DNA of 64,000 nucleotides from an uncultured delta proteobacterium (GTDB taxonomy: Bacteria > Desulfobacterota > Binatia > JACPRU01), in the NCBI GenBank assembly GCA_963745025.1, contig CAVUWD010000010.1:32001-96000 (forward strand), in the 5' to 3' direction. Both the position numbers and the translations under genes were made by a program. The number at the start of each line of letters is the position of its first letter. The stretch's first letter is position 1. The notes beneath the pieces were generated by a model, which was not told where the DNA came from, ran no database searches, and saw only the letters and a list, made by a program, of their open reading frames with translations. Of this stretch, positions 5,548-46,168 are shown piece after piece.

Positions 5548-5601
5548 TCCGGTCCCCCTGGCGTTGTGATAACCCATCGGCTGTTCCGAGGAGAGGCACC
5601 T

Positions 5602-8002: not shown

Positions 8003-8126
8003 CTCCAGCCTCTCGCGTATTTCCACAGAGCCGTCTGGCTTCTGAGCCTGCTGATTTTCCTCGACGCCCGGCTCGGGCGAGGGGCGCGCCGCGATTAATC
8101 GGTCGCGCGAAGAACGACAAGGTCCC

Positions 8127-9669: not shown

Positions 9670-9720
9670 GAACGGCGGCCGGTTCAAGAACCGTCGAAAC
9701 CAGACGAGGCAGGGTCAGTG

Positions 9721-11232: not shown

Positions 11233-11253
11233 GCCAACTGCCCCCTGCCGCCC

Positions 11254-12117
11254 ATGCCGAGCCTCAAGGTCATACGCAAGCGCATTGCCTCGGTGCGCAA
11301 CACCCAGCAGATCACCAAGGCGATGAAGATGGTGTCCGCGGCAAAGCTCCGCCGTGCGCAGGAAGCCGCGGTCTCCACGCGTCCCTACGCCCAGAAGCTG
11401 ACCGAGTTGCTGCGAGGCGTGACCGGTGAGGTCACGGACGAGGCGCATCCACTGCTGCGCGCGGTCGAGTCGGAGGCGCGGGTCCATCTCGTGCTCATCA
11501 CCTCCGACCGGGGCCTCTGCGGCGCTTACAACGCGGCGTTGCTCCGCCAGGCGGAGGCTTACATCCGCCGCCAGGCGGGACGCGAAGTTTCACTGACGAT
11601 CATCGGCCGCAAGGGGGTGGAGTACTTCCGTCGCCGCTCCGTGCCGATTGCCGATCGCCACGTTCAGATCCCCGGGCCGTCGATCGGTCTCGCTCGCGAG
11701 ATCGCGGCGAAGGTCTCGGCCGAGTTTGCCGAGGGCCGTGCAGATCGGGTGGATCTACTCTATAGCGCCTTCCGCTCGGCGCTATCGCAGGTACCGACCC
11801 TCGAGACGCTGCTGCCGATTGCGATCGAGGCGAGGGCCCAGGACGCGCCGCCTGCGCTCGAGCACCTCATAGAGCCCGACCGCGCGTCGCTTCTCCATCG
11901 ACTGCTGCCGCAGTTCTTGGAGGTGCGAATCTACCGCGCCCTGCTCGAGGCGGCGGCGAGCGAGCTTGCCGCACGCGTGACCGCCATGGACAGCGCGACG
12001 AACAACGCCGAGAAGATGATCTTCAGCTTGACGCTCGTCATGAACCGGGCGCGGCAGGCGGCGATCACCAAGGAGCTCATGGAGATCGTGTCGGGCGCGG
12101 AGGCCCTGAAAGGATGA
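11254..12117 (+). CDS. atpG: F0F1 ATP synthase subunit gamma
   Basis: QQITKAMKMVSAAKL, TSDRGLCG, RARQAAITKELMEIVSGAEAL. Confidence 0.99.
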   Translation: MPSLKVIRKRIASVRNTQQITKAMKMVSAAKLRRAQEAAVSTRPYAQKLTELLRGVTGEVTDEAHPLLRAVESEARVHLVLITSDRGLCGAYNAALLRQAEAYIRRQAGREVSLTIIGRKGVEYFRRRSVPIADRHVQIPGPSIGLAREIAAKVSAEFAEGRADRVDLLYSAFRSALSQVPTLETLLPIAIEARAQDAPPALEHLIEPDRASLLHRLLPQFLEVRIYRALLEAAASELAARVTAMDSATNNAEKMIFSLTLVMNRARQAAITKELMEIVSGAEALKG

Positions 12118-12224
12118 GGACCTCGTGAGCGCCCGCCGCGTCGATTTCGTGCGTAAGGACGGTGGCGACGATGACGTCGCGCACGTGCATCGGAAGGGCG
12201 TAAATCTCGAAGGGGCGGCGCTGA

Positions 12225-13667
<1,443 letters not shown>

Positions 13668-20326: not shown

Positions 20327-22151
20327 TCGCCTCGATCTCCCGCGCGAGAAACGGCACTGCGACGGACCATTCCGCGACGAGCCCGAAGTCGGATTGCTGG
20401 AAGATCGGCGCCTTCGGGTTCTTGTTGATGGCCACGATCGTTCCCGCCTTGCGCAGGCCGACCATGTGCTCGAACGCTCCGCGGACGCCGATTGCGACGT
20501 AGAGCCGAGGCGAGATCGCTCGTCCCGTGAGACCGACCTGGTGTTGCCTCGGCAGCCAGCCGGCGTCGGCGACGTCGCGGGTGGCGGCGATTGCGGCTCC
20601 GCCCAGGGCTGCAGCGAGCGGTTCGAGTTGCTCGAGATTCTCGACCCCTCCGAGCCCCATGCCGACGCCGATCGCCGTCTCACACTCATCCAAAGCGGCG
20701 GCTCGCTCGACGCCCGGCGCGATCCGGGACTCGGTCACCAGCGTACGGATCGCCGGGGCCTCGGTGATGCGGAGCTCCTCGACGATCGGCGTGCGCCCCG
20801 GGTCTCGGGGGATCGGCTCCAGCATGCCGGGGCGCACGGTCGCCATCTCCGGCAGCGTGCTCGACAGGATCGGTGCAACGATGTTTCCCCCGAAGGCAGG
20901 CTTCCACTGAACGAGGCGGCCCTCGTCGTCGAGCGACAAGTCGACCGCATCTCCGGTGAGGCCGAGACCGAGCCGGGCGGCGATGCGAGGGGCGAAGTCT
21001 CGCCCGAGCGCGGTCGAGGGCACGAGCACCGAGCGCGGCTGCCGTTCGCGGATCGCCCGGGCGAGCACGGCGGCGTAGGCATCGGTGGAATAGTCTGCGA
21101 GCAGCGGATCATCACAAACGATGATGCTCTCGGCTCCGTGTTCAGCGAGCTCCCGGGCGTGCGCACGGACGCCGTGGCCGAGCAGCAGCGCCGACACACG
21201 GCCGCCGCTTTTCGCGGAAAGCGCGACCGCCTTGCCGAGGAGCTCGAGGCTGACTCGCCGCAGCCGCCCGTCGAGCACCTCGGCGACTACCCAGATCGAT
21301 CTCGAGGAATCCGTGGTCCCCTTGGGCGCTCGCGCAGCACCTGCCGCATTCCCCATGGCGCGCGGCCGAAAAACTCCCCGCTCGGCCAAGGCGGCGACCA
21401 CGCTCCGCACGGCCTCGGCGACGTCGCCTTCGCATAGCCGCGCCTCGCGCTTTACCTCGACCGACTGGAGGCCTTCGACCCGCGTCGGCGAGCCGGCGAC
21501 TCCGAAAAGCTGCCGGTCCTCGGAGAGGTCCCGGGCGGCCAGCTCCGTGATCGGTTTGGTCTTCGCCGCTTCCTTCTCGGCGCGCTTCGGGAAGCGTTCG
21601 GGGGCGATGTCCTCGGTGACGCTTACCAGCGCCGGCAGTTGACATTCGACCGCCTCGAATCCCGCGTCGGTTTCACGCTCGGCCTTCACTCGCCCGCGGC
21701 TGGCGTCCAGATCGAGCCGGCGGACGGCCGTCACCTGCGGCAGGTCGAGGATCTCCGCGATCTCGGGTCCGACCTGGCCGGTTTCGGCGTCCACGCTCGA
21801 CTTGCCGCAGAGCACCAGATCGAATCCCTCGCGACGGAGGGCGAGCGCGAGCGCACGGGCGGTTGCGAGAGTGTCCGATCCGGCAAACGCGGGATCGACG
21901 AGGTGAACCCCGCGGTCGGCGCCGAGCGCCAGGCAGTGAACGAGCGCCTCGCGCGCCTGCGGCGGGCCCATCGTCAGCACCACCACTTCTCCGCGGGTCA
22001 GCGCACGAAGCTCCAGAGCGCGCAGAAGCGCACGGACGTCGAACGAGCTGACTTCGAGACGCACCCCCTCACGACGCAGGCGGCGGGTCTCCGGGTCGAA
22101 CTGCATCTGCGAAACGTCGGGAACCTGCTTGATCAAGACGGCATACTTCAT
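20307..22151 (-). CDS. Fused electron transfer flavoprotein beta/alpha
   Basis: N-terminal VLIKQVPD...TMGPP...GSDTLATA...DAETGQVG (EtfB); C-terminal QVGLTG...YVAIGVRGAFEH...AINKNPKAPIF (EtfA). Confidence 0.92.
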   Translation of the reverse strand: MKYAVLIKQVPDVSQMQFDPETRRLRREGVRLEVSSFDVRALLRALELRALTRGEVVVLTMGPPQAREALVHCLALGADRGVHLVDPAFAGSDTLATARALALALRREGFDLVLCGKSSVDAETGQVGPEIAEILDLPQVTAVRRLDLDASRGRVKAERETDAGFEAVECQLPALVSVTEDIAPERFPKRAEKEAAKTKPITELAARDLSEDRQLFGVAGSPTRVEGLQSVEVKREARLCEGDVAEAVRSVVAALAERGVFRPRAMGNAAGAARAPKGTTDSSRSIWVVAEVLDGRLRRVSLELLGKAVALSAKSGGRVSALLLGHGVRAHARELAEHGAESIIVCDDPLLADYSTDAYAAVLARAIRERQPRSVLVPSTALGRDFAPRIAARLGLGLTGDAVDLSLDDEGRLVQWKPAFGGNIVAPILSSTLPEMATVRPGMLEPIPRDPGRTPIVEELRITEAPAIRTLVTESRIAPGVERAAALDECETAIGVGMGLGGVENLEQLEPLAAALGGAAIAATRDVADAGWLPRQHQVGLTGRAISPRLYVAIGVRGAFEHMVGLRKAGTIVAINKNPKAPIFQQSDFGLVAEWSVAVPFLAREIEAIKKMFV

Positions 22152-22235
22152 GGCTTTCCGCCTCCTATGCGAAGCCGCCGGTGTGGGCAAGATTCCGCCT
22201 CGACCGGCGGCGCCATCGCTGCTAGACGACGGATC

Positions 22236-22889
22236 GTGTCTCGGAGCCCGAGTGGCCGGCCGATCCTGGTCTACGCCGTGGTAATCCTCGCGCTGGGCTG
22301 CCGCTCCGCGCTTGGGCTTAGCGATCAGAGTCGAAGGGCGGAGGCGCAGCAGCTCGCGGATGCGGCCTTCGCCGAGCGCCGAAAGGCCGATCGTCTCGAG
22401 AGCGATTGGGAAGCGACTTACGATAGCGGTATCGAGCTCGCCAAGCGGGCGATCGCGATCGATCCGAGCTTGGCGGAGGGCTACTTCGCCCTGTTCGTCA
22501 ATCTGGGAAGAAAGTCCGAGCGCGCGAGTGTCGCGGCGCAGGCGACGCACATCTCGGAGCTGAAGGAACTCTTGGAGAAAACGCTCGAGCTCGATCCCGA
22601 GCACGCCCATGCCTGGGAAGCCAAAGGAGAGATGCTGATGCGTTTGCCGCGGCTCTTCGGAGGCTCCGAGAAGCAAGGCGAGCAGGCGCTGCGGCGCTCC
22701 GCGGAGCTGGATCGCAAGTGGGCGAAGCCAGTGTTGCGGCTTGCCCAGTATGATTGGAAGAAGGGCCGCCGCGCCGAGGCACGCGCGGAGGCCGAACATG
22801 CCCGCGAGCTCGCCCGCGCGGCGGGTGATGAGGATCTTACGAAGGCGGCCAACGATCTACTGAGGGAGATCGATCTGACGGCTCCCTGA
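22236..22889 (+). CDS. TPR-like exported protein or lipoprotein; start uncertain (22167 or 22236)
   Basis: Hydrophobic leader with LALGC lipobox-like sequence; helical repeats LELDPEHAHAW, LPRLFGGS. Confidence 0.6.
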   Translation: MSRSPSGRPILVYAVVILALGCRSALGLSDQSRRAEAQQLADAAFAERRKADRLESDWEATYDSGIELAKRAIAIDPSLAEGYFALFVNLGRKSERASVAAQATHISELKELLEKTLELDPEHAHAWEAKGEMLMRLPRLFGGSEKQGEQALRRSAELDRKWAKPVLRLAQYDWKKGRRAEARAEAEHARELARAAGDEDLTKAANDLLREIDLTAP

Positions 22890-27350: not shown

Positions 27351-29210
27351 TTACCCCGCCGTCCAGCCGACCTCACGCAGGAGATACGAGAGGCGGCGCG
27401 GATCGTCGTTCAAACCTTCGCGCTGCGGCACGAAATAGCGAGACGCCTCCAGGTCGATCCGGACGACACCGCCCGCGGCCGGCTCGGCGAGCGGCACCAC
27501 CTGTTCGAAGTCGCCAGGCGGCAGCGGCGCATCCGCGATCAATCGCCCATTGCAGCGCACGCGCAGCGACTGCCCGCGTAGCGAGGCAAACACCTCCGGC
27601 AACGAGCCGCGGATGACGATGTGCTTGCCCGTGCGAGGCAACAACAGGCGTACCGTGGTCGTGGCCCAATCGTCGGCGTACCAGCCTTCCCAACGCACGA
27701 GTGTGCGGAGAACGAACCACTTCCAGATGGGAAACAGCAGGGTGGCCCTGCGGCTGAGGCGCTTCCACATCCACTCTGGAAATCGCCTGCGCAGCACGTT
27801 GAAGAATGTGTCGATGCCGTAGCATAAGTACGCGGGCGGATAGCGCAGTGTCCCGTGACGGCGCATGATACCGACGAGCTCACGAAAACGCGCCAGCCCC
27901 CCACTCGCGGTCTTCGTCGAATCGTACTCCCGCTGAATGGCCATCTCTGCCGGCACGTACGCCAGGTCATACCGCTTGGCGATGCGAATGAATAAGTCCC
28001 AGTCCATTCCCCACTCGAGGCTCTCGTCGAGAAGGCCCACGTCGTCGAGCACGCTGCGCCGCACGTAGACCGTCGGTTGTAGGAGGTAGTCGGAGTAATA
28101 GATGAACTTCCACAGATTGAAGCGGCCCGCCTTCGGAAACGCCCCCTTGATCGAGCCGTCCTCCTCGGCGAGATAGCCGTCCCCGTACACGGCGCCGACT
28201 TGTGGTTGGCGAGCGAAGGCATCGACGGCCATCGATACCGCTCGCGGCATCAGCAGGTCGTCCGAGTTCACCCAACACACGATGTCGCCCCTCGCGCGCT
28301 GAAACCCCTTGTTGATCGCGTGCGATTGGCCGCGGTCGCGCTCGCAGGCCCATACCAACCGGTCGCCGTACTCGGCGACGACGTCGGCGGTCTCGTCGGT
28401 CGAGCCGCCGTCGATGATGAGGTGCTCGATGTGCGGGTAGTCTTGATGGAGCACGCTCTCGATCGTATCGCGGATGAAGCGACCTTGATTGAACGACGGA
28501 GTGACCACCGTGACGAGCGGTCCGTCCACCTCCCGCTTGCGGTTCGCGTAGCCGAAGCGGCGCATCGCGCCGCCGTGTCGAGCCCAGAACAGATCTTCCA
28601 GCTCGGCTGACATTTGGCCGCGGTGACCGCCGATTCGTCCTTCGCGGAAGCCGCCGGGCGACCATCGACGCAAATCCGTGAACGAGGGAACCACCCCACC
28701 GATCGACGGCATGCGAATGCCGAGGGCTTGCAACGCCTCGTTCAAGACCGGGATAGGATCGGCGATGAGGTCCTCGAAGCGGATGTGAGCCGTCGGCGCC
28801 TTGCGCCGACCCCAAACGAGCGCGTGCCGGCCCCACCCGCCGAAGTAGGCGTCGGTGCAAACGAGCTCCCGGAGGACGCTCGCGAAGAGGTCCGGCGACG
28901 ATGGATCGACGTGCTTCTTCTCGTACTCTAGAACGAAACGCGCGTAGGAGACGAGCGAATCGCGACCGTCGCGCACGACGTGGATCGCTCGATGGTCGTC
29001 CTGCCCAGGGAGCTCATGGGTCTTGACGAGGAACAGTTCGGGAGACGGTGCCATCTCGGCGAGACGCCGCGGGCTCGCGAGCCCCGCGTTGATCTCCTTG
29101 TCCGCGGTCTCCTCGTAGATCGAATAGGTCGCGCGCCCGAACAGCCTGCCGAACAGAACGCGGAGAAAGGTATTCCCGGAGCGCGGGTACGACGCCAACC
29201 AGAGAATCAA
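27351..29210 (-). CDS. Sulfotransferase-glycosyltransferase family 2 fusion protein
   Basis: 5'-PSB LASYPRSGNT, KTHE, 3'-PB VRDGRDSLVS; GT2 VTVVTPSFNQ...IIDGGSTD...WVNSDD. Confidence 0.88.
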   Translation of the reverse strand: MILWLASYPRSGNTFLRVLFGRLFGRATYSIYEETADKEINAGLASPRRLAEMAPSPELFLVKTHELPGQDDHRAIHVVRDGRDSLVSYARFVLEYEKKHVDPSSPDLFASVLRELVCTDAYFGGWGRHALVWGRRKAPTAHIRFEDLIADPIPVLNEALQALGIRMPSIGGVVPSFTDLRRWSPGGFREGRIGGHRGQMSAELEDLFWARHGGAMRRFGYANRKREVDGPLVTVVTPSFNQGRFIRDTIESVLHQDYPHIEHLIIDGGSTDETADVVAEYGDRLVWACERDRGQSHAINKGFQRARGDIVCWVNSDDLLMPRAVSMAVDAFARQPQVGAVYGDGYLAEEDGSIKGAFPKAGRFNLWKFIYYSDYLLQPTVYVRRSVLDDVGLLDESLEWGMDWDLFIRIAKRYDLAYVPAEMAIQREYDSTKTASGGLARFRELVGIMRRHGTLRYPPAYLCYGIDTFFNVLRRRFPEWMWKRLSRRATLLFPIWKWFVLRTLVRWEGWYADDWATTTVRLLLPRTGKHIVIRGSLPEVFASLRGQSLRVRCNGRLIADAPLPPGDFEQVVPLAEPAAGGVVRIDLEASRYFVPQREGLNDDPRRLSYLLREVGWTAG

Positions 29211-29265
29211 GTCGACATTTCTCCAGGGAGCTCCATATCGGAATCGCCGACCGCGCGAAACAGAC

Positions 29266-29460
29266 TCAGTTGACGCCCGCCGAGGACGTCACGCGCAGCA
29301 CTTCCTCGATCGTCGTCCACCCTTGCCGGACCTTCTCGAGGCCGCCGCGGCGAAGCGTCGTCATACCGAGGGCGATCGCGCGCTTGCGCAGCTCGTCCGT
29401 CGTGGCCAGCGCCATCACCAAGCTCCGCATCTCCTCGGCCATGGCGAGCACCTCGTTAGA
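29266..29460 (-). pseudogene. C-terminal fragment of a GspE/PilB secretion ATPase
   Basis: GMTTLRRGGLEKVRQGWTTIEEVLRVT C-terminal signature; rest of gene absent. Confidence 0.75.
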
Positions 29461-29561
29461 AGGCGAGCCCGAGGGCTGATAGAGCACTAGCCGAACGCTA
29501 GCAGGAAGCACCTCGTCAGGAGGATTGTCCCAAGCTCTCTCTTTTTGTGAGACACTAGACG

Positions 29562-30302
29562 ATGCGTACCGTCTGCATGCTGAACTCTGGAGAAGTCCAC
29601 GTCTGGTGCGCCCGCCCCGAAGAGGTTGGGGGCGAGGCTGACGGTCGTCGGCTGCTTGCCGCCGACGAGCTCGAACGCTCGGCCCGCTATCGCTTCGAGT
29701 GTGACAAGCGCATGGCCGTGGCCACCCGAGTGCTCTTGCGGACGGTGCTGTCGCGGTACGAGGCGGTCGCACCATCCGACTGGCGCTTCTTCGTCGAGGG
29801 GTACGGTCGTCCGGTTATCGCCGACGGCCGTAGCTCGCTTCGCTTCAGTCTGTCGAAGACGGAGGGGCTCATTGCCTGTGCCGTGGCGCGCACGGTGGAT
29901 CTGGGCGTCGATGTCGAGTGCCTGAGACGAAGGGCGCCGCTGGAAGTGGCCGACCGCTTCTTTGCCCCGGCCGAGGTAGCGGCGCTCCGCGCTCTGCCCG
30001 AGCCGGTGCGGCAGGGCCGCTTTTTCGACTACTGGACCCTCAAGGAGAGCTACGTCAAGGCACGCGGCCTGGGCCTGACGCTGCCGCTTCAGAAGTTCTC
30101 GATTGTTCTCGACGAGGGATCGCCGCGCATCGAGATCGATCCGTCGCTCGGCGACGACGGCGCCCTTTGGCAGCTCGTGCAACTGAGGCCGACGCAAGAG
30201 CACGTCCTGTCGCTTTGCGTGCGCAGGCGGGGAAGGCAAGATGTGAAGGTCGTGCTGCGATGGCATCCGGACACCGCGCTTCCTGCCGAAGCGCGCCCGT
30301 GA
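29562..30302 (+). CDS. Sfp-type 4'-phosphopantetheinyl transferase
   Basis: LRFSLSKT, LGVDVE, YWTLKESYVKARGLGL. Confidence 0.93.
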   Translation: MRTVCMLNSGEVHVWCARPEEVGGEADGRRLLAADELERSARYRFECDKRMAVATRVLLRTVLSRYEAVAPSDWRFFVEGYGRPVIADGRSSLRFSLSKTEGLIACAVARTVDLGVDVECLRRRAPLEVADRFFAPAEVAALRALPEPVRQGRFFDYWTLKESYVKARGLGLTLPLQKFSIVLDEGSPRIEIDPSLGDDGALWQLVQLRPTQEHVLSLCVRRRGRQDVKVVLRWHPDTALPAEARP

Positions 30303-30370
30303 ACAGCTGAGTGGGTCCGCAGCGGCGCGCTCGAGCGCCACTCTCGTTGGTCTCGCCGCGAGTGCAATCG

Positions 30371-33300
30371 ATGGACGACAGGATCAATCTCTTCTACGAA
30401 CAGACGCGGCTTCTCAACGGACGTGAGATCGTCGAGCGACCGCACTGGAACACGCTTGCTTCGGTAGATGCGATCCGGCATTTCGCCTACGGAACCAGCG
30501 ACGACAATCCGCTCTGGCTAGACGAAGCCTACGCCGCAGCCACCCCGCACGGGGGACTCCTGGCGCCTCCGGCCTTCGTCTGCTCGGTTCTCTATCCCTT
30601 CCTGCACGGGGCCGCCGTGGACGCGCCATTGGTAAGCCTCATCGGCGAGATCTCGGTCGATTGGTTTCGTACCATCCGAGCGGGCGACCGCTTACGGGCG
30701 ACTTCGCGGCAGACCGACGTCACGGAAGCGTTGGATCGCCGCGGGCGGCGCATCTTCTTCGTCCTCGCGGAGACGACGTACTGGAACCAGGACGATGCAG
30801 TGGCCGCGACGGCCAAGGGCACGATGGTCCGGATCGCGCGTGAGGAGAACGACCTGCTGTTGGATCGGGAGATGAGCCGCTACTCCGAGGGGGAGCGGGA
30901 TGCCCTGCGGCGGGCGATCGAGGACGAGTCGCGCGCCGGGCCGGCATCGCCCACCGGCTCGGACGTGTGGGTAGGTATGCCGCTGCCCGTGATGATGCGC
31001 GGTCCGCTCACCATCGGCGATCTCGTTTGCTGGCAGGCAGCGATCGGGCCGTCCTACCGGGCGGGAAGCCTCGGCTATCTCGATGCGGTGAAGGCGCCGC
31101 ATACCGCGGCGGTGAACCCGGTCACCGGCTGGCCGGTCAAGTATTCCCAGCAGCACGAAGACTTCCTCCTCGCGGCGCAGCGGGGCATGCCGGCGCCATT
31201 CGACAACAGTCTCATGCGGTTCGCCTGGATCGCTCCCTTGCTGACGGACTGGATGGGGAACGAAGGCTTCCTGAAACGGCTCAGCGTGCAGACCGGGGCT
31301 CCGCTGATTTACGGGGACGTGACCTGGTATCGCGGCGTCGTCGTTGAAAAGCGCCCGGCAACGACGGGCGATGCGGTCGACGTGCGCATCCGCATCGTCG
31401 GTGTCAATCAACTCGGGGCCACCACGACCACCGGTGAGGCCGTCGTCACGCTTCCAGCTCGACGGCTGGGCCTGCGCCCCCGGCGATCGCCGACACGCGT
31501 CGTCCAACGACGGGAACAACGACGAAACGGAGAAACGCTGCTCGATCGATTTGCCGCGGCCGCGCAGGCGCATGGCGACAAAGCCGCGCTCATCGGACGG
31601 CGGGAGTCGGTCTCTTTCGCCGAGCTGGATGCGCGGTCCGATCGGGTGGCGGCGCGGCTGGCCGCGATGGGTTGCGGGCCCGGCACGGTCGTCGGACTGT
31701 CGTTCCCGCGCGTGCCGGATTTGCTCGTGGCGATGCTCGGTGTGCTCAAAGCGGGGGCCGCGTATCTGCCGCTCGAGTGGGAAGCGGCCGCGGAGCGCAC
31801 ACGGGCCGTTGTCGATGCGGTTGGGCCGGCCGTCGTCATCCACGCGGGGGATGGCGCGCCGGGCGGCGCGGCTTCGGCGGCACGCGACTACGGAGGCAGG
31901 GCGGCGGCGTGGCGGGAGCTCGATGCGCATGACGCGCGCGCGGTTCCGTGGCAACGGAGGAATCCCGAAGAGCGGGATGTGGCCTACGTGATGCCGACTT
32001 CCGGAACTCTGGGGGCGCCGCGCTGTGTCGCGGTGTCTCACGGCAGCCTAACGAGCTACCTCGCGGCGCTCCTGCCGGTATTGGGCCATCGAGCTGACGA
32101 CGTCTGCCTGCAGTCGGCGGCCTTCCATTTCTCCGCTTCCGTTCGGCAGCTCTTTGCCGGCCTGTGCGAGGGTGCCACGCTGGTCATGCTCGACGAGGAG
32201 CAGCGCAAGGATCCGCGCGAGATCATGCGCGCAATCAAGGAGCACGGCGTGACCGTCTGGGATACGGTACCTTCGGTGTGGCAGGCGTGCATCGACACGC
32301 TCCTGCTCATGCCGCCGACGGAGCGAGCAGAGCTGCTCGACAACCGCCTGCGGATCGTCCTGACGACAGGCGAACGGCTCGGCTGGCTTGCTCCGAGGGC
32401 GTGGCGCGACCGGCTGGGCCAGACCAGCCGCATGGTGAACCTCTATTCCCAGACGGAAACCGCTGGCACCACCTGCGCCTTCGAGATCACTCGGATCGAG
32501 GGGGCGGACGACGAGGTCGTGCCGCTGGGCCAATCCCTTGCGGATATCGCCGTCCACGTCATGGATGAAGCGAGGAAGCCGGTTCCCGCCGGAGAGGTCG
32601 GCGAGATCTGCGTGAGTGGCCTGCGGCTCGCCATGGGCTATGTCGGGCAACCGGAACTGACCGCGGAGCGGTTCCCGATCGTGCCTTTCCGGCACGAGGG
32701 CTTCTGTCGCACCGGTGATCTCGGCCGCCTCGACGAGCGAGGTCGTCTCCTGTTCGTCGGGCGGAGTGATCTACGAGTGAAAATCCGCGGGCAGACGGTG
32801 GAGATCGAGGAAGTCGAGCGCGCGCTCGAGACATGCCCTGGGATCGACGGCGCCGTGGTGGTCTGCCGGGACACCGCTGCGCACGCAGCCTCCTTGCTGG
32901 CGTATGTGGTTCCCGAGCAGCGTGAGGAACCACCGGGCACGCACTCGATCCTCGCCCATCTGCGCGGTATCCTCTCCGACGCTGCGCTGCCTTCGGCCAT
33001 CGTCTTCCTCGACGAGTTGCCGAGGAATGCGGCGGGCAAGCTAGACCGTTCCGCGCTTCCGTTGCCGCCAGCTGGGTTGCCCGACTCCGTGGACGAGGCT
33101 GACGATCCGGTCATCGGCGCGGTGCGGCGGCTCTTCCTCGAGGCACTCGAGACGCGGCAACTCGACAACCAGCAGAATTTCTTCGACGCAGGGGGGAACT
33201 CGCTGATGGCGACGCGCGTCGTCGCGCGCCTGCGCCAGCAGTTCGACATCGATCTTCCCCTCAGGCGCTTCTTCGATGCTCCGAGCGTTGCGGGGGTATC

Positions 33301-33379
33301 GAGGGTCGTAGAGGAATTGCTGATCCGCCAGATCGACGCGTTGAGCGAAGACGAGGCGGCAAGACTGCTGAAGGAATGA
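30371..33379 (+). CDS. NRPS-like starter protein: double MaoC/hotdog dehydratase - adenylation - thiolation
   Basis: DAIRHFAYGTSDDNPLW..AYA and second hotdog GPLT...GMPAPFD...LTDWMG...GDVTW; A domain LKAGAAYLPL, TSGTLGAPR, RTGD, NAAGKLDR; T domain FFDAGGNSL. Confidence 0.9.
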   Translation: MDDRINLFYEQTRLLNGREIVERPHWNTLASVDAIRHFAYGTSDDNPLWLDEAYAAATPHGGLLAPPAFVCSVLYPFLHGAAVDAPLVSLIGEISVDWFRTIRAGDRLRATSRQTDVTEALDRRGRRIFFVLAETTYWNQDDAVAATAKGTMVRIAREENDLLLDREMSRYSEGERDALRRAIEDESRAGPASPTGSDVWVGMPLPVMMRGPLTIGDLVCWQAAIGPSYRAGSLGYLDAVKAPHTAAVNPVTGWPVKYSQQHEDFLLAAQRGMPAPFDNSLMRFAWIAPLLTDWMGNEGFLKRLSVQTGAPLIYGDVTWYRGVVVEKRPATTGDAVDVRIRIVGVNQLGATTTTGEAVVTLPARRLGLRPRRSPTRVVQRREQRRNGETLLDRFAAAAQAHGDKAALIGRRESVSFAELDARSDRVAARLAAMGCGPGTVVGLSFPRVPDLLVAMLGVLKAGAAYLPLEWEAAAERTRAVVDAVGPAVVIHAGDGAPGGAASAARDYGGRAAAWRELDAHDARAVPWQRRNPEERDVAYVMPTSGTLGAPRCVAVSHGSLTSYLAALLPVLGHRADDVCLQSAAFHFSASVRQLFAGLCEGATLVMLDEEQRKDPREIMRAIKEHGVTVWDTVPSVWQACIDTLLLMPPTERAELLDNRLRIVLTTGERLGWLAPRAWRDRLGQTSRMVNLYSQTETAGTTCAFEITRIEGADDEVVPLGQSLADIAVHVMDEARKPVPAGEVGEICVSGLRLAMGYVGQPELTAERFPIVPFRHEGFCRTGDLGRLDERGRLLFVGRSDLRVKIRGQTVEIEEVERALETCPGIDGAVVVCRDTAAHAASLLAYVVPEQREEPPGTHSILAHLRGILSDAALPSAIVFLDELPRNAAGKLDRSALPLPPAGLPDSVDEADDPVIGAVRRLFLEALETRQLDNQQNFFDAGGNSLMATRVVARLRQQFDIDLPLRRFFDAPSVAGVSRVVEELLIRQIDALSEDEAARLLKE

Positions 33380-33388
33380 CGAGAGGAG

Positions 33389-36300
33389 GTGATCGAGCTG
33401 CAAGGATCGGATTCGGGCGACCGCTCGGCCAGGCTTTCTCCGACGAAGCGGGCGTTGTTGCGGAAGAGAATCGCTTCCGCGCTGGAGGTGACCCCGCCGG
33501 ACCGGGGGCGCATTCCCCGTTGCGCGCGTGACGGAACGATCCCCGCGTCGTTCTCTCAGGAGAGGATGTGGCTCATCCACCAGGTCCATCCGGGCATCAT
33601 CGCCTACAACTCCCAGGTGGCCCTGCATTTCACCGGGCCGCTCGACACGGATGCGCTGCGCCGGAGCCTCGACGACATCGTCAGGCGGCACGAGATCTAC
33701 CGGACGTCGCTGGCGGAAGAGGGAGGACGGATCGTCCAACGCATTCACGGCGTCGCGCCGGCCGGCCTGACGGTGATCGATCTGGAGACCAGCACGGAGG
33801 GACCGTCCGAGGCCGCCTTGCGCGCGACGATCGAGAAGGAGATCGCTCGGCCGTTCCGTCTCGATCAGTCGCCGCTCGTGCGGTGGGTCTTGATCCGTCT
33901 CGGTGCGGAAAGACACACCCTTCTCTGCATGGACCACCACGCGGTGGGCGACGGATGGTCTCGCCACGTCGTGCTCGGCGAGTTGATGACGCTCTACCGC
34001 CACCACCACGCGGGGACGGGCGCGATGCCCTTGCCGCCGCCCATCCAGTTCGCGGACTTCGCGGCTTGGCAGCACACGTGGATTCACAGCGAGGAGGCTC
34101 GCGCCCAGATCGCTTTCTGGAAGAACCGCCTCGAGGGAATCGCACCGGTGCTCGACCTGCCCCTGGACCGACCTCGCCCGATGCGGCCGTCCTTTCGCGG
34201 CGGTCACGAGCTGATGACATTCGAGGAGGCGGAGATGGCGCCGCTCCGTAAGCTCGCCGAGCAGGAGCAGGCCACGATGTACATGCTCTTTCTCGCCGGA
34301 TTTCTCGCGGTGTTGGGGCGGCATTGCCGGACGGAAGACATCCCGATCGGGTCCGGCATCGCCAACCGCCGCATGCCGGAGACCGACGGGCTCGTCGGCA
34401 TGCTCATCAACACGGTGGTGATGCGCGCAAACATGTCCGGCAATCCGACCTTCCTCGAGTGGCTTCGTCGCGTGCGCGCGATGACCCTGGAGGCCTACGC
34501 TCATCAGGAGGCGCCCTTCGAGAAGGTCGTCGAAGCGGTCGCGCCGCCGCGCGATCCCAAGATCAACCCGCTCCACCAGGTGACTTTCAATCTCCAGAAC
34601 AACCCCATCCCGGCCATGGATTTTCCGGGGCTCGAGGCGGAGCTCGAGCGGCCGTTGTTCAACGGCTCGGCCAAATTCGACCTCTATGTGGCCGGATGGC
34701 CGCGATCGCGCGAGCGATTCGGCGGTTGGCAACGCGACGATCATGCCCTGCTACTCTCTTGGGAATACAACGCGGACGTTTTCGACGCGGCTACGATCCG
34801 GGTGCTGCAAGACCACCTGCGACGGGCGTTGGCGCGGGCTGCATCGGATCCGGGCGTGCGTCTCGGCGATCTTCTCGAGGGGGTGGAGGTAACGGGATCC
34901 GATCGGGTGCCGCAACGAAGCGATGTTCGGGATTCCGCGATCCACCGGCTCTTCGAGGAGCAAGCCGCGATCCGTCCCGAAGCGGTCGCGGTCGAATACG
35001 GGGACCGTCGACTCAGCTATGCCGAGCTCAGCCGGCGCGCGGACGCTTTGGCCCGGCGTCTGCGCGCGGTCGGTGTGGGGCGCGACATGCCGGTGGGGTT
35101 GCTCGCCCGAAGGTCGGTCGAAATGGTGATCGGTCTGCTCGGCATCCTGAAAGCGGGAGGGTGCTACGTTCCCGTCGATACCGGGTTTCCGGCCAAGAGG
35201 CTGGCCTTCATGGCGGCGAAGGTCGGGCTCGAGCTGGTCGTCGGTCCACAAGCGGAGTTCACGTCGCTCGAGGGTGCGCTGCCGGGATGTCGCCATATCC
35301 ACTCCGATGCGGATGAACCGTCCGGCGCCTCGGATGGTCCCGAGCCATCCGATGAAGCAGTCGACGGCGAAAGCTTGGCGTATGTCCTGTTCACCTCCGG
35401 CTCTACCGGTGAGCCACGGGCGGTGGCCGTTCCCCATCGCGCGGTGGCGAGGCTGGTCAAGGGGCAGGATTTTGCCGTCATGGATGAGAAGCAGGCGTGG
35501 CTGCATCATTCGCCGCTCTCGTTCGACGCGTCCACACTCGAGATCTGGGCGGCGCTGTGCAACGGGGGCCGTTTGGTCGTTCTGCCTTGCGGGCCGGCAT
35601 CGCTCGACGAGATCGCGCGGGTCGTCCGGGAATCGGCGGTCACGTCGCTGTGGCTGACGTCCGGGCTGTTCCGGCTCATGGCGGCGGAGCGCGGCGCAGG
35701 ACTGGCGGGGCTTTCCCAGCTGCTGACGGGCGGAGACGTGGTGTTGTTGGAATCCGCGCGCCGCGTGCGCGAGATGCATCCCGAGCTCCGCCTCGTGAAT
35801 GGATACGGCCCGACGGAGAACACCACGTTCACCTGCTGCCAAGAAATCGGGATCGAGGACTTGAGGCGGCGTTCCATCCCGATCGGCCGGCCCATCCAGG
35901 GCACCAGCGTGTGGATCCTCGACGGGGAAGGACGCGCGTGTCCGATCGGAATCGCCGGCGAGCTGTGCACAGGTGGTTCAGGCCTTGCGCGCGGGTATTG
36001 GCGCGACGAGGCCGCAACCGCGGAACGGTTCATCGAGCACCCGCGGTTCGGCCGCCTCTATCGCACGGGAGACCTCTGCCGGATGCTGCCTGACGGGCGC
36101 ATCGAGTTTCTCGGACGGCTGGACAGGCAGACCAAGGTGCACGGCGTGCGCATCGAGCCCGCTGAAGTCGAGTCGGCGCTCGTGCGATGCGAGGGCGTCG
36201 CCGGCTCGGCGGTGGTGGCCGTCGAGGACGCCGCCGGAGAGCGGATCCTCATGGCCTATGTCGTGCCCTCCAATTCTTCCGAGCGGTTGTCGGTCGACCT

Positions 36301-37390
36301 CTTGCGCCGTCGATTGAAGGAACACTTGCCGGATCTCCTGCTGCCGTCCCGCTTCGTGATGGTGGAAGGCTTGCCGATCACGGCAAACGGCAAAGTGGAC
36401 TACGGGGCCTTGCCGGCGGCGGAACCGTGGACCGCCCCCGGTGCGTCGGAAGACGCCGGTTTTTCGGAAGGGGAGGCAGCCGTTGCCGCCATCTGGGAGG
36501 AGGTCCTTGGGGTCGGCGTGCGTAGCAAGCAGGACGACTTCTTCACGCTCGGTGGCCATTCGCTGGCCGTTCTACGGGTGCTTTCCCTGCTGCGCGACCG
36601 TGCGGGGGTGGAATTGCACGCACGGCAGTTCTTCGACGATCCCACGGTCCGGGGGATGGCGCGCGCCGTCGAGCAGGCGGGACTGGTCTCACGTGACAAG
36701 CAGGGCAGCGAAATTCTGATGCCCATCGGAGGAGGAGAAGGCCCGGCAATCGTGTTCATACCCGGGGGTTGGGGCGAAGAGAATGAGATTCTGGTGTTTG
36801 CGGCATTGTTACGGCGAATGCAGACGAGGCGGCCCTGTTATGCAGCTCGCTCTGGAGTCCTGGACGAAGATGTGTCGCTGCCGAGCGGCCTCGACGAGCA
36901 GGTCGACCGCGTGGTGGCGGCCATCCGGGCGAAACGCGTGAAGGGGCCGCTGGCCATGGTGGGCGAGTGCGCCGCCAGTACCCTGGCCCTGGCGGTTACG
37001 CGGAAGCTGCACGCACTCGGGGAGCCGCCGGAGTCACTGACCCTGCTGGATCCCGGTCCGCTTTCTCACCTAGAGTCGCTGCGGGAACGGCTGCGTGCCG
37101 CCGCGCCTGCCGAAGGTTCGGGCACCTCCACGCTGCCGACGCGCGTCGAGCACTACTACGGAATGCTCGGGGATGTGAGCACGACTCCGGTCAATTGCCC
37201 GCTCCATGTCATTCTTTCCTCGCGTTTCCCCGACACAGAAGCCGTGCGTGCGAGCTGGATGCCGATGGCCGGGCGCTCGTTGCGCGTGCACCGGGTGCCC
37301 GGCGACCATCACTCCTACATCCGGGACATGGCGCAGGACACGGCCCGAGTGCTCGACGGGATCGTGTCGCCCGCGGAAGAGGAGCGTTAG
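33389..37390 (+). CDS. NRPS termination module C-A-T-TE (A-domain code read as Val-like)
   Basis: C domain SFSQERMW, HHAVGDGWS; A domain FTSGSTG, FDAS, NGYGPTE, NGKVD; T domain GGHSL; TE GECAA...GDH. Confidence 0.93.
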   Translation: MIELQGSDSGDRSARLSPTKRALLRKRIASALEVTPPDRGRIPRCARDGTIPASFSQERMWLIHQVHPGIIAYNSQVALHFTGPLDTDALRRSLDDIVRRHEIYRTSLAEEGGRIVQRIHGVAPAGLTVIDLETSTEGPSEAALRATIEKEIARPFRLDQSPLVRWVLIRLGAERHTLLCMDHHAVGDGWSRHVVLGELMTLYRHHHAGTGAMPLPPPIQFADFAAWQHTWIHSEEARAQIAFWKNRLEGIAPVLDLPLDRPRPMRPSFRGGHELMTFEEAEMAPLRKLAEQEQATMYMLFLAGFLAVLGRHCRTEDIPIGSGIANRRMPETDGLVGMLINTVVMRANMSGNPTFLEWLRRVRAMTLEAYAHQEAPFEKVVEAVAPPRDPKINPLHQVTFNLQNNPIPAMDFPGLEAELERPLFNGSAKFDLYVAGWPRSRERFGGWQRDDHALLLSWEYNADVFDAATIRVLQDHLRRALARAASDPGVRLGDLLEGVEVTGSDRVPQRSDVRDSAIHRLFEEQAAIRPEAVAVEYGDRRLSYAELSRRADALARRLRAVGVGRDMPVGLLARRSVEMVIGLLGILKAGGCYVPVDTGFPAKRLAFMAAKVGLELVVGPQAEFTSLEGALPGCRHIHSDADEPSGASDGPEPSDEAVDGESLAYVLFTSGSTGEPRAVAVPHRAVARLVKGQDFAVMDEKQAWLHHSPLSFDASTLEIWAALCNGGRLVVLPCGPASLDEIARVVRESAVTSLWLTSGLFRLMAAERGAGLAGLSQLLTGGDVVLLESARRVREMHPELRLVNGYGPTENTTFTCCQEIGIEDLRRRSIPIGRPIQGTSVWILDGEGRACPIGIAGELCTGGSGLARGYWRDEAATAERFIEHPRFGRLYRTGDLCRMLPDGRIEFLGRLDRQTKVHGVRIEPAEVESALVRCEGVAGSAVVAVEDAAGERILMAYVVPSNSSERLSVDLLRRRLKEHLPDLLLPSRFVMVEGLPITANGKVDYGALPAAEPWTAPGASEDAGFSEGEAAVAAIWEEVLGVGVRSKQDDFFTLGGHSLAVLRVLSLLRDRAGVELHARQFFDDPTVRGMARAVEQAGLVSRDKQGSEILMPIGGGEGPAIVFIPGGWGEENEILVFAALLRRMQTRRPCYAARSGVLDEDVSLPSGLDEQVDRVVAAIRAKRVKGPLAMVGECAASTLALAVTRKLHALGEPPESLTLLDPGPLSHLESLRERLRAAAPAEGSGTSTLPTRVEHYYGMLGDVSTTPVNCPLHVILSSRFPDTEAVRASWMPMAGRSLRVHRVPGDHHSYIRDMAQDTARVLDGIVSPAEEER

Positions 37391-37463
37391 CCGGCAAGAC
37401 GGGAAGCTTGTCGAGGGGCGTCGGCCTGTTGCGTCGCCTTCAAGCAAAATTGGGAAGGAAGGG

Positions 37464-37940
37464 ATGGATACCAACCTCGCAACTCGATGCCTCGCTTCGT
37501 TACTTTTCGTGTGGGTGTTGTTGCCGCGGAGCTTGGCTGCCGAGTCGCTCGCGGCCGTTCCACGCCCCTTCGCTGATTCAGCCTCGTACCTCGCCTGGGG
37601 TAAGGAACTCTTCGGCATTTACTGCGCCTCCTGTCACGGAGTCGATGGAACAGGAAACGGTCCGGCGTCAGCCTCGCTCAAGACCGGCCCGCCCGATCTC
37701 ACGCAAATCAGCAAGAAGCACGACGGCAAGTTTCCGCGGATGGAGGTTGTCGGCTTCATCGACGGCGAGACTCCACTCGCCGCTCACGGATCGCGCGAGA
37801 TGCCCGTCTGGGGACGAGTCTTCAGGCCCCCGCGTCGCGGCTCGTCTTTGGGTAGCCCCGAGATTTACGCCATGACCGACTACCTCGAGTCGATTCAGAA
37901 GAAGACGGCGCAAGAGCTTGGGGTAGGAAAGAAGCCCTGA
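37464..37940 (+). CDS. Periplasmic monoheme c-type cytochrome
   Basis: Signal peptide, CASCHG, HGSREMPVWG. Confidence 0.88.
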   Translation: MDTNLATRCLASLLFVWVLLPRSLAAESLAAVPRPFADSASYLAWGKELFGIYCASCHGVDGTGNGPASASLKTGPPDLTQISKKHDGKFPRMEVVGFIDGETPLAAHGSREMPVWGRVFRPPRRGSSLGSPEIYAMTDYLESIQKKTAQELGVGKKP

Positions 37941-38011
37941 CGTCGATGTCTTACTCGCTGTTGCCTCCCGGGTTCGCTTCTTGATCCTGCGTGCTCGGAG
38001 AAAGGGTAATT

Positions 38012-38542
38012 GTGCGCATCAAGCGAATCCTCGTGCCCACGGATCTCTCCGAGGCTTCAATGCCCGCGCTCAAGCTGGCGGAAAACCTCGGACGGATCTT
38101 CAAAGCTGACCTCGCTCTGCTCTTTGTCGTGGAGCCGCTCGATATGAGCGGAGACATTCTGAGCGGAGGAGCGGTGGCTTCCGCGATCGAAGCGCAAGAG
38201 AAAACCGCCCGTGCCCAGCTCGCTCGCGCGGCAACGCGACTACGAAGGCGAGGACTACGTGTGCGCATTCTCGTCGGCACCGGCAAGGCCGCCTCGGTCA
38301 TCGTCGACACCGCGCGGCAGGGCTCTACCGATTTGATTGTCATCGGCACGCACGGCCGGAGCGGCCTTGCGCATGTCTTGATGGGCAGCGTTGCCGAAAG
38401 GGTAGTACGGACAGCTGGCTGTCCAGTGGTCACCGTGCCGCCTCATCCGAAGCAGACGACTCGGAGGGCTGCGAGTAAGCGCCGAGGGCTACGCGGTGCG
38501 GCGAACGGACTCCGGCGAGTCTCAACTGCAACGCTGATATAG
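38012..38542 (+). CDS. Universal stress protein
   Basis: KRILVPTDLS, DLIVIGTHGRSG...MGSVAERVVRTAGCPV. Confidence 0.92.
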   Translation: MRIKRILVPTDLSEASMPALKLAENLGRIFKADLALLFVVEPLDMSGDILSGGAVASAIEAQEKTARAQLARAATRLRRRGLRVRILVGTGKAASVIVDTARQGSTDLIVIGTHGRSGLAHVLMGSVAERVVRTAGCPVVTVPPHPKQTTRRAASKRRGLRGAANGLRRVSTATLI

Positions 38543-43924: not shown

Positions 43925-46168
43925 TCAAATCCGAGCCTCCTCGAGCGCGGCATTCAGCAGCCGGTGCACGGACAGCCCATCGTCTTCCCCGAGTGCCTCA
44001 TCGAGGAGCTCCCGTGCCCGCTTGGCCGTGAAAGTTCGGATCACGAGCTTCACGCGTGAAAGGCTCGCAGGGCTCATGCTCAGCGCATCGATTCCCATGC
44101 CGAGGAGTACGAGAGCGCCGGCGGGATCACCTGCCATTTCGCCGCACACGGTCACGGGCGTGCTTCGTTCGTGCGCGTCGTGGATCACTTTCACGACCGC
44201 ATCGAGGACGGCGGGATGAAGACTGTCGTACGGAGTCGCCACCTGGGCGTTATTTCTATCCGCTGCGAGCATGTACTGGGTGAGATCGTTCGTGCCGACG
44301 GAGAGATAGTCCACGCGTTCGGCCAACGACTTGGTCAGAAAGACGGCGGAGGGCACCTCGATCAGCGCCCCGACTCGCGGCTTCGCGCTCACCTGGCCTT
44401 CTTCCAGCAGCTCCCGGTGAGCGCGCTCCAGTAGCTCAAGGGCTTCATCCAGCTCACCGAGCCTGGCAATCATCGGAAAGAGCAGCTGCAGGTTTTCGAG
44501 GCCCGCGTTGGCTCGCAACAGAGCCCGCAGTTGAATCAGGAAGATCTCCGGGTGCTCGAGGGAGAAGCGGATTCCGCGACAGCCCAGAAATGGGTTGTCT
44601 TCCTCCACGGGAAAATATCGCAGGATCTTGTCGCCGCCTACGTCGAGAGTGCGCACGGTCACGGGCTTGGGTGCGAAGGCTTCCAATAGCTGGCGATAGA
44701 TCTGGTACTGCTCATCTTCGACCGGGAAGGATTCGCGTAATAGAAACAGGTATTCCGTGCGGTAGAGGCCGACGCCTTCGGCGCCGCTCTGCCGAGCGGT
44801 TTCGATGTCGGACACCAATCCGATATTCGCGTACAGCGGCAACCGAACACCATCCAGAGTTTCCGCCGGCAGATCGCGGAGCCCGATCAGCCGCCCAGAA
44901 ATCGCCTTCTGTTCGGCAGACGCGTCGTTCGAACGCCTCGAGCGTGGAGTGCGGTGGGTGCACGTAGATGCGACCCTGGTCGCCGTCGACTATGATCGTG
45001 CGGCCCTCGAGATGGCTGATGGGCAGCGACAAGAGACTCACGACGGCGGGAATTCCCAGGGCACGCGCCAGCACGGTGGCGTGAGACAGCGCCGAGCCGT
45101 GCGTGCACACGATGCCGGCAAGTCGCTCGACGGGCACCGCGGCGATCTCCGTTACGGTGACCGTCTCTGCCACGAGAATACAACGTTCCGGATACGTTCT
45201 TGACTCTTTGACCTTCGACTGGAGATGGACGAGAACGCTTCGGCCAATCGAGCGAATATCTTCCGCGCGTGCGCGCAAATACGGATCGTCCATTTGATCG
45301 AAGATCCTCGCGCGGTCGACGATGGTGTCACGCCATGCTCCGGCGGCCCAGTTTCCCCCGCGGATCCGTTGGATGGTGTCTGAGAGCAGGCTGTCACTGC
45401 CGAGCAACATCACGTACGCCTCGAAGCAACTCCCGCATCTCGCTGGGGAGATCACCAGTCAGGCGCTTGCTACCCAAGTCGAGCTCCTGGCGAGCGGCAG
45501 CCACAGCGGTTCGGAATAGCGGTCTCTTCGCTGGCGATGTCCTGGATGCGGCGATCCGGTACGGACTCCAGCTTTCCCAACGGGTCGAGCAGTGCAGCGG
45601 TGCCGATGGCAATACCGGCGGCCGCCTGAACGCCCTGAATGAATGCCTTCTCCTGTGCCTCGCCGCGCAGCAGCCTGGTCACTTCGTCGGCTGCCGCAGC
45701 TTCATGGATGAGCTTCGCCAGCTGCGCTGCGATCGTGACGAAGAACGTCACTTCATCCTTGTCGAATTGCGCGTGTCCCTTTTTCCAGGCTGCCAGCACG
45801 CCGAGGACGTGGTGATAATGGATCAGCGGTATGCCGAGAAAGGTGTCGTAATGTTCCTCCGCTGTTTCGGGAGAAGGGCGGTAACGCGGGTGTGCCGTCG
45901 CATCCTTCAGAACGACAAGCTCTCGGCGTTCTCCGACCAAGCCCAGCAAGCCGCTGTGCCGATCTGCGCGGACCCGTCCGACCGATGCGGAGCGAAGTCC
46001 ACTCGATGCCATCAGGACATACTCGTCGGTCTCGACATCGGTCAGGTAGACCGCGATGGCATCGACCGGCAGAGAGCGTTTGATCCGGCGAACGATGACG
46101 GCCAGAGCCTCATCCAGATTCGACGCGGTACGGACCTCCCGTACGATGTCTTGGACCTCAGCAAGCAT
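43925..46168 (-). pseudogene. ptsP: GAF-domain PTS enzyme I-Ntr PtsP, full length but with three apparent +1 frameshifts (~45515, ~45425, ~44920), possibly sequencing errors
   Basis: N-terminal GAF, phospho-His SHATVLARALGIP, GVGLYRTE, RTLDVGGDK, SVGTNDLTQY, CGEMAG. Confidence 0.88.

Follow-up and report, generated by a model that had tools for sequence, protein, structure and literature searches.

Initiation modules of nonribosomal peptide synthetases (NRPSs) that tailor their starter unit in cis include the formylating module of LgrA and the adenylation (A)-ketoreductase (KR)-thiolation (T) modules for keto acids; these load a unit onto the T domain, modify it on the carrier, and pass it to the first condensation (C) domain. 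Outside NRPSs, the mesaconyl-coenzyme A (CoA) hydratases (8hgn, 4e3e), PaIch/RipB, MSMEG_6754 (4v12), and the MaoC-like dehydratase 5i7n share a pseudo-dimeric double-hotdog fold of ~350 amino acids (aa), act on thioesters, and keep company with CoA-transferases or dicarboxylate ligases. Substrates of the related HadAB dehydratases are bound to a carrier protein. At the other end of the assembly line, a few NRPS thioesterases (TEs), such as those of obafluorin (ObiF1) and sulfazecin (SulM), use Cys in place of the Ser of the GxSxG nucleophile elbow. Features of all these systems recur in a three-gene NRPS operon within a 64,000-nucleotide stretch of DNA from an uncultured delta proteobacterium (contig CAVUWD010000010.1, positions 32,001 to 96,000; hereafter the window), in which a MaoC/HadAB-like double-hotdog domain is fused to the A and T domains of the initiation module.

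In its logic the locus is an ordinary NRPS; the in-cis tailoring domain and the specificity code are undescribed, and the module type appears unstudied. It differs from LgrA and the A-KR-T modules in that the tailoring domain has the hotdog fold and the first A domain (A1) lacks Asp235. A first-pass annotation had proposed three co-oriented genes, encoding a 4'-phosphopantetheinyl transferase (PPTase), a hotdog-hotdog-A-T protein, and a C-A-T-TE protein, and Pfam and NCBIfam agree on all three (Table 1). The spacing of 9-68 bp that it gave is reproduced (68 bp between the PPTase gene and the second open reading frame, ORF2; 9 bp between ORF2 and ORF3) when ORF2 is started at ATG 30371. The open frame itself extends over 30311-33379 and encodes 1022 aa from its first GTG at 30311, from which all ORF2 residue numbers are counted here; because the closest homologues begin at the residue equivalent to ATG 30371, the true protein is probably the 1002-aa product of that start. 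No stop codon separates the hotdog and A regions in the window or in any homologue retrieved, and close homologues 83-54% identical are equally read through. G+C content at third codon positions is 0.79-0.80 in all three reading frames. The PPTase scores 65.9 bits against Pfam ACPS (PF01648; cut-off 25, E 4e-18) and 129 bits against the NCBIfam HetI equivalog, under its 370-bit cut-off, and is accordingly placed in the ACPS superfamily with no named equivalog assigned. A scan of 29100-38100 returned no promoter-like site, together with four terminator-like sites against 4.6 expected by chance, and was uninformative. The three genes constitute a self-contained NRPS operon with its own PPTase.

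The first ~360 aa of ORF2, likened at first pass to MaoC-type dehydratases rather than to a C domain, do form a MaoC/HadAB-like double hotdog of ~365 aa according to Pfam, AlphaFold, and Foldseek. Pfam FAS1_DH_region (PF13452) covers residues 51-167 with 50.7 bits (cut-off 22), while the second half (approximately residues 225-385), which receives no Pfam call, is evident from the AlphaFold model and Foldseek. The model, built with 36 homologues, comprises two helix-plus-four-strand hotdog halves at a mean predicted local distance difference test score (pLDDT) of 85.3 and a predicted template modelling score (pTM) of 0.86. In a Foldseek comparison with the PDB, the top match is the double-hotdog MaoC-like dehydratase 5i7n (E 1.3e-17, TM 0.58/0.68), and the top ranks are filled by double-hotdog CoA-ester (de)hydratases (5i7n, MSMEG_6754, 4e3e, 8hgn, Rv0216, and PaIch) with E-values of 1e-17 to 1e-11, target-normalised TM of 0.54-0.68, and sequence identities of 10-20%. 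By sequence, the best matches are instead HadAB, fused HadA-HadB, and ChsH1-ChsH2, which share with the window domain a non-catalytic-like first half and a His in the second; a PDB sequence search with the N-terminal domain gave weak matches to ChsH1/ChsH2, HadA, and two MaoC-like double-hotdog dehydratases (E ~0.01-0.05). These relatives differ in that their scores fall far under the cut-offs, their substrates are long or steroid acyl chains, and they have no A-T fusion. An ESM Atlas look-up of the domain returned generic 'FAS1-like dehydratase' clusters only, with no functional lead.

Fold and lineage of this domain are clear; its chemistry is less certain. The hydratase-2 motif places a catalytic Asp and a His five residues apart within one hotdog, whereas here that dyad is split between the halves: the first reads D-D-N-P-L-W, with D64 (30500-30502) present and W69 in the place of the His, and the second contributes H282 (31154-31156) after a 10-residue insertion, with no Asp at the usual Asp position. 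As the dyad is incomplete in both halves, the chemistry may differ from simple (de)hydration, and the dehydrating, hydrating, or isomerising role proposed for the domain is putative. A catalytically dead hotdog, serving only for structure or docking, would fit the missing dyad, yet seems highly improbable: ~65 hotdog columns are invariant in a 28-sequence alignment, several of them Arg, and the family-invariant residues include D64, N66, P67, W69, H282, E283, D284, R291, and D298. The hotdog is, moreover, the best-conserved part of the protein, ahead of the A domain in all 27 homologues compared (median identity 55% vs 38%), is retained through domain permutation, and is 47-66% identical to free-standing enzymes encoded in metabolic gene clusters. 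A somewhat better case, still an improbable one, can be made for a thioesterase, editing, or acyl-transfer domain that clears a mis-loaded first T domain (T1) or shuttles acyl groups between CoA and T1, given that many hotdog folds are thioesterases, that the double-hotdog thioesterases ACOT12, 3bbj, and 2own are among the Foldseek matches, and that the hydratase dyad is incomplete. Thioesterases match much less well (TM 0.29-0.51, and 0.29-0.40 for double-hotdog ones such as ACOT12) than the hydratases do, however; the families matched are PF13452, MaoC, and HadA/HadB rather than 4HBT or acyl-ACP thioesterase; four of 22 fused loci already have a separate TE in the same protein; and co-variation with a single A-domain code, as seen here, would be surprising in an editing domain.

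That code is the second distinguishing feature of the module. A1 is a sound member of its family (PF00501, 245 bits, cut-off 29.9; TIGR01733, 332 bits, cut-off 317), is followed by an AMP-binding_C match in ORF2, and has the LgrA A domains among its closest solved relatives. Specificity positions, read from an alignment to the LgrA A domains and transferred by MAFFT, are S235, A236, R239, D278, L299, T301, L322, T330, C331, and K517 (SARDLTLTCK); three of the pocket codons lie at 32132-32134 (S608), 32144-32146 (R612), and 32261-32263 (D651), and the A5 motif region reads YSQTE. In ordinary A domains, Asp235 holds the alpha-amino group of the substrate; module 2 has this Asp, whereas A1 has Ser235 together with Arg239 and Asp278, so that module 1 is best described as NRPS-type machinery for a non-standard substrate. 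Of 121 sequences compared (the query and the 120 listed homologues described below), 108 have the fusion and, with it, the pattern SARD-x-TL-xx-K, the 13 exceptions being 11 unrelated C-containing NRPSs with Asp235 codes, one fragment, and one all-gap row, which indicates that this A domain and the hotdog travel together. The code persists even in proteins permuted to A-T-TE-hotdog (P0093, P0099, and others). The earlier suggestion that module 1 loads something other than an amino acid thus gains ground, in that an ordinary alpha-amino acid is an unlikely substrate for A1. A comparison of the pocket segment with the PDB gave no indication of the substrate, the best matches (8xjz, ApnA A1, and PchE) all being of the Asp235 type.

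The fusion is far from confined to the window. A homologue search, in which 8000 candidates were scored, yielded 532 proteins at E <=0.001; among the best 120 of these, which are the ones listed, ~100 carry PF13452, AMP-binding, and PP-binding together, the closest being 83% identical and metagenomic. A GTDB scan with one genome per species gave 79 loci, with the fused form in ~27 species-level genomes from at least 10 phyla. Fused or related loci were found in Desulfobulbales, Hydrogenophilales, Solirubrobacterales, Caldilineaceae, Nitrospirales, and cyanobacteria, as well as in Solibacteraceae, Methylococcaceae, Planctomycetota, Verrucomicrobiales, Cyclobacteriaceae, and others. Within this set, the window is matched best by locus L015 of an uncultured deltaproteobacterial metagenome-assembled genome (MAG), at 74% identity, which places the window's own genome outside the GTDB set scanned. 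The possibility, raised at first pass, that no other genome has the fusion can therefore be dropped, and the system is not peculiar to the window. The accompanying claim of an undescribed architecture holds in one respect, namely that no description of a MaoC/hotdog-NRPS A-T fusion was found in the full-text literature, a source that leaves subscription journals and MIBiG outside its scope.

Position within the protein is nearly as constant as the code. In a set of 115 proteins (>=800 aa, >=40% identity), 108 have the hotdog at the N-terminus, six have it at the C-terminus, and one has it internally (P0374, C-A-T-hotdog-A-T-C-A-T); a C domain stands directly upstream of it in none, as would fit a starter unit that is not itself acylated. 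Variants of the fusion add a TE (~1225 aa, cyanobacteria), a C domain and further modules, or an FkbM-type methyltransferase within the A domain (Thermodesulfobacteriota, Solibacteraceae, and Cyclobacteriaceae). The JGI name 'aspartate racemase' borne by two cyanobacterial homologues was discounted, as no racemase domain is listed for them. In a tree of 320 hotdog domains, built to see whether the fusion had a single origin and from which rows with <330 aligned residues had been dropped beforehand, fused and stand-alone forms of >40% identity are intermixed at backbone supports of 0.2-0.8, while 111 stand-alone sequences form one clade (support 0.99); the tree supports no claim on the direction of evolution.

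What the hotdog may act on is suggested by its stand-alone relatives. Free-standing double-hotdog proteins of ~370 aa and 53-66% identity are abundant: a search for them, in which 8000 candidates were likewise scored, gave 264 at E <=0.001, and the stand-alone family comprises 186 clusters at 50% identity (E up to 1e-30). In 16 neighbourhoods scanned around relatives 47-60% identical, a family III CoA-transferase is adjacent in seven, a tricarboxylate-type transporter (TctA or TctC) is present in five, and a SucCD-like ADP-forming ligase in three; Zn-dependent reductases, enolase-superfamily enzymes, fumarate-reductase-like flavoproteins, and D-2-hydroxyacid dehydrogenases are further neighbours. 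The one CoA-transferase tested (L042) matches best, below cut-off, the models for formyl-CoA, succinate-glutarate, and succinyl-CoA:mesaconate transferases, and one stand-alone relative weakly matches the itaconyl-CoA hydratase RipB/Ich. From these neighbours, the hotdog would be expected to act on thioesters of small di- or tricarboxylic acids, with the A-T pair replacing the CoA-activating enzyme. The same kind of company surrounds the mesaconyl- and itaconyl-CoA hydratases, from which the window domain differs in its low sequence identity and its split dyad, and also in its fusion to an NRPS A-T pair, so that its substrate would be bound to a carrier rather than to CoA. Arg239, for its part, is typical of A domains whose substrate has a distal carboxylate. 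In three of the stand-alone loci, L017, L051, and L054, the relatives are closest to the NRPS form (56-59%) and have as a neighbour a SucCD-like ligase whose scores stay under the cut-offs for succinate-CoA ligase; a D-2-hydroxyacid dehydrogenase stands beside those of L017 and L054, and the context looks like an unassigned organic-acid pathway in Binatia, NC10, and Thermodesulfobacteriota MAGs.

The second protein is more conventional. Its C domain (PF00668, 310 bits) carries HHAVGDG from ORF3 residue 183 (33935), in agreement with HHxxxDG, and the solved C domains nearest to it are 5u89, Txo1/Txo2, the fuscachelin PCP-C didomain, and TycC. Adenylation domain 2 scores 264 bits in Pfam and 397 bits against TIGR01733 (cut-off 317), and an AMP-binding_C match is present in ORF3 as well; the alignment returned DALWLGGTFK, the code that had been read by eye at first pass, which we take to specify Val. 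The TE is a member of its family (PF00975, 31.3 bits, cut-off 26.4) with a variant nucleophile that the first-pass annotation had passed over: the GxSxG Ser is replaced by Cys1194 (36968-36970, in GECAA), which aligns with the Ser of GHSAG in the polyketide synthase TE 9cel, and the His is His1307 in GDHH. Cys occupies the nucleophile column in eight of 27 related TEs, including those of four Val-type partners (the window, L002, L015, and L006) and of L001. The formation of strained rings is associated with Cys-type TEs. The window TE shows no detectable specific relationship to ObiF1 or SulM (ObiF1 TE, E 0.54); these two close such rings on a C-terminal residue that bears a beta-hydroxy or beta-amino group, whereas a Val-like residue is predicted in that place here.

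Taken together, these features suggest a simple assembly line, to which we would assign about an even chance of being correct as a whole. The PPTase would prime both carrier domains; A1 would adenylate a carboxylic acid that is small and polar, the likeliest being a C4-C6 dicarboxylate (fumarate, malate, mesaconate, or itaconate type), and load it onto T1; and the double hotdog would treat the acyl-S-T1 thioester in cis much as its free-standing relatives presumably treat acyl-CoA, so that water (or some other small nucleophile) is gained or lost across the alpha,beta bond. In this respect, the A-T pair would stand in for the CoA-ligase or CoA-transferase found with the stand-alone enzyme. The C domain would then join the modified acyl group to a Val-like residue on the second T domain (T2), and the Cys-nucleophile TE would free an N-acyl-valine-type product, either hydrolysed or cyclised. 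Domain order, motifs, fold, conservation, the invariant A1 code, its obligate pairing with the hotdog, and the starter position are observed, whereas the class of substrate, the reaction with its direction, and the product are inferred.

Gene contexts of the fused loci, 22 of which were Pfam-scanned, bear on the second half of this scheme. The PPTase, hotdog-A-T, and C-A-T-TE trio recurs in L002 and L015, where the counterparts of ORF3 are 50% and 71% identical to it over the full length, respectively; the PPTase of L015 is 75% identical and in the same position, and that of L002 sits after the gene pair. The hotdog-A-T gene of L015 lies in two overlapping frames (10158-12739), probably through an assembly frameshift in the MAG rather than a real split. 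L006 is a trio-type locus with an extra A-T gene, L009 has everything fused in one 2332-aa protein, the hotdog module continues into other modules in L016 and L061, and a TE is fused directly to the hotdog-A-T protein in L001, L007, L011, and L014, the four loci of this kind among the 22. Partner codes are DALWLGGTFK in the window, L002, and L015, DAFWLGGTFK in L006, DAQDLGVVDK in L009, DLTKFGEVGK in L016, and DLYNLSLIWK in L061, where an oxidase domain is also present; judged by these codes, the starter module is constant and the second residue variable. Two dehydrogenases in L008, a 3-hydroxyacyl-CoA dehydrogenase and an acyl-CoA dehydrogenase, were considered as beta-oxidation-like partners of a hydratase and rejected, since together with an adjoining HAD-like gene they resemble an FkbH/K/I cassette for glycerate-derived units. 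Five fused loci contain extra stand-alone A-T proteins of ~605-627 aa in which Asp235 is replaced by H, S, or T (Table 1), and thiamine pyrophosphate enzymes occur in L018 and L019.

The extra A-T proteins are of interest to a different account of the chemistry, in which A1 activates the side-chain carboxyl of an amino-dicarboxylate, such as aspartate or methylaspartate, Asp278 holds the amino group, and the hotdog is a thioester-dependent ammonia-lyase or C-N lyase that yields a fumaryl-type enoyl-S-T or, in reverse, adds an amine. A domains for iso-linked Asp or Glu carry Arg239, hotdog-fold ammonia-lyases on beta-aminoacyl-CoA exist, basic R239 and acidic D278 are both invariant in the same 108 of 121 sequences, and the non-canonical dyad leaves room for chemistry other than hydration; a possible amine donor is provided by the extra A-T proteins in five of the 22 loci (L006, L013, L018, L019, and L021) and by the direct joining of C-A-T to hotdog-A-T in P0374. 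The window, on the other hand, has no extra A-T, and the only obvious amino-acid enzyme beside the stand-alone relatives is a class III aminotransferase (L059, one of 16 loci), so that we regard an amino-dicarboxylate starter, in either direction of the reaction, as decidedly unlikely.

Several observations also weigh against the assembly line favoured here, that of a dicarboxylate-type starter modified on T1 and joined to a Val-like residue. The likeness of the hotdog to named families is modest at the sequence level, with 38 bits (E 1.3e-9) against a cut-off of 350 for the fused HadA/HadB model NF040620 and 24.1 bits against a cut-off of 27 for Pfam MaoC_dehydratas, and the Asp-plus-His dyad of hydratase-2 is intact in neither half. 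The argument for a dicarboxylate is indirect, combining the neighbours of relatives that are 47-60% identical with the Arg239 rule. The closest solved relatives of the C domain are ordinary peptide-elongating domains, which neither prove nor exclude an acyl donor, and seven of the 22 fused loci have no NRPS partner within ~4 kb. Finally, sulfur-related genes lie beside several fused loci, namely ComA (phosphosulfolactate synthase) in L019, a TauE exporter in L021, TauD in L011, a rhodanese in L015, and a sulfotransferase in both the window and L001, and these could point to a sulfonated acid.

The last of these genes, which the first-pass annotation had not mentioned, encodes a fusion of a sulfotransferase with a family 2 glycosyltransferase (GT2) and lies divergent to the operon, with an NAD-dependent sugar epimerase gene beyond it on the upstream side. 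In L001, a sulfotransferase-GT2 gene (4862-6706; 35-40% identity) directly follows the hotdog-A-T-TE gene and precedes an ABC-2/Wzt-type exporter, even though the two loci, the window's and L001, are only 54% related. Such an arrangement raises the prospect that, instead of a free small acyl-amino acid, the system supplies an acyl or acyl-Val unit for a sugar or polysaccharide that the sulfotransferase-GT2 makes and sulfates, giving a decorated glycoconjugate. Glycosyltransferases also flank L004, L011, and L014, which brings the count to four of the 22 scanned loci plus the window, and the TEs of the window and L001 share the unusual GEC nucleophile motif. We nonetheless consider a glycoconjugate unlikely, and the link a lead rather than a finding, because L015 and L002, the closest trios, have no such neighbour in the stretch scanned; the window gene, besides being divergent, is separated from the operon by ~350 bp across a gene remnant. 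That remnant, a short frame at 29266-29442 on the minus strand, resembles the C-terminal ~50 residues of a type II/IV secretion ATPase (PF00437, under cut-off at 17.6-19.6 bits) and may mark an old insertion point.

Elsewhere in the window, gidA, gidB, parA, parB, bactofilin, and F-type ATP synthase genes follow in series (2781-13667), and the window is therefore probably chromosomal and close to the origin. An 849-aa frame at 20307-22856 (minus strand) contains ETF beta-like and ETF alpha domains (two ETF stretches plus ETF_alpha) and could represent either a single, fused electron-transfer flavoprotein (ETF) or a pair of genes joined by read-through. A 1995-aa protein with GH94 and glycoamylase domains (46181-52168, minus strand) looks like a cyclic beta-1,2-glucan synthase, and downstream of its gene are split phosphoenolpyruvate-utilising enzyme domains (43925-45455) and a GAF protein. 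At the window end (61421-64000, minus strand), nitrile hydratase alpha and beta genes are followed downstream by a gene for a Zn-dependent dehydrogenase.

Table 1. Positions of the operon, its domains and possible partner in the window, and of the extra A-T genes in other fused loci.
Feature	Locus	Position	Strand	Basis and details
PPTase, Sfp/HetI-type	Window	29562..30302	+	246 aa; Pfam ACPS
Initiation protein, double hotdog-A-T	Window	30371..33379	+	1002 aa from ATG 30371
MaoC/HadAB-like double-hotdog domain	Window	30371..31465	+	Residues 21-385; PF13452, AlphaFold, Foldseek
Adenylation domain 1	Window	31550..33040	+	Pfam AMP-binding residues 414-777, E 1e-72
Thiolation domain 1	Window	33122..33304	+	PP-binding residues 938-998, E 2.8e-14; Ser964 (33200-33202) in GGNSL
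Elongation/termination protein, C-A-T-TE	Window	33389..37390	+	1333 aa; Pfam
Condensation domain	Window	33533..34870	+	Pfam, E 2.5e-92
Adenylation domain 2	Window	34952..36394	+	Pfam, E 2.4e-78
Thiolation domain 2	Window	36479..36670	+	PP-binding, E 4.1e-13; Ser1058 (36560-36562) in GGHSL
Thioesterase domain	Window	36794..37330	+	Pfam Thioesterase
Sulfotransferase-GT2 fusion, possible partner	Window	27351..29210	-	Pfam Sulfotransfer_1 and Glycos_transf_2
Extra A-T gene	L006	8062-9942
Extra A-T gene	L013	14449-16332	-
Extra A-T gene	L018	5744-7567	-
Extra A-T gene	L019	6532-8349	-
Extra A-T gene	L021	13025-14845

A bolder proposal, which we hold to be doubtful, is that the fusion represents an undescribed class of NRPS initiation module, in which the split, non-canonical hotdog site goes beyond adding or removing water, for example by adding an amine, a thiol, or sulfite to a carrier-bound enoyl-dicarboxylate, or else by forming a beta-hydroxy acid that is cyclised by the Cys-type TE. 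By either route, if the proposal is true, bacteria of more than 10 phyla would make small acyl-amino acids of a new family, reactive or chelating, that are borne in some lineages on sulfated glycans.

At 7.8 kb, with three genes, its own PPTase, and about the minimal size for such a system, the operon is practical for heterologous expression. A hotdog-fold tailoring domain with one unusual code would add a new type of starter unit to the NRPS catalogue and to the rules used in genome mining, and, as the module is common in uncultured lineages (Nitrospirales, Thermodesulfobacteriota, cyanobacteria, Planctomycetota, Verrucomicrobiales, and others), one solved member would annotate more than 100 gene clusters. 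Solving the module would also give a handle on the large, unannotated family of stand-alone 'acyl dehydratases'.

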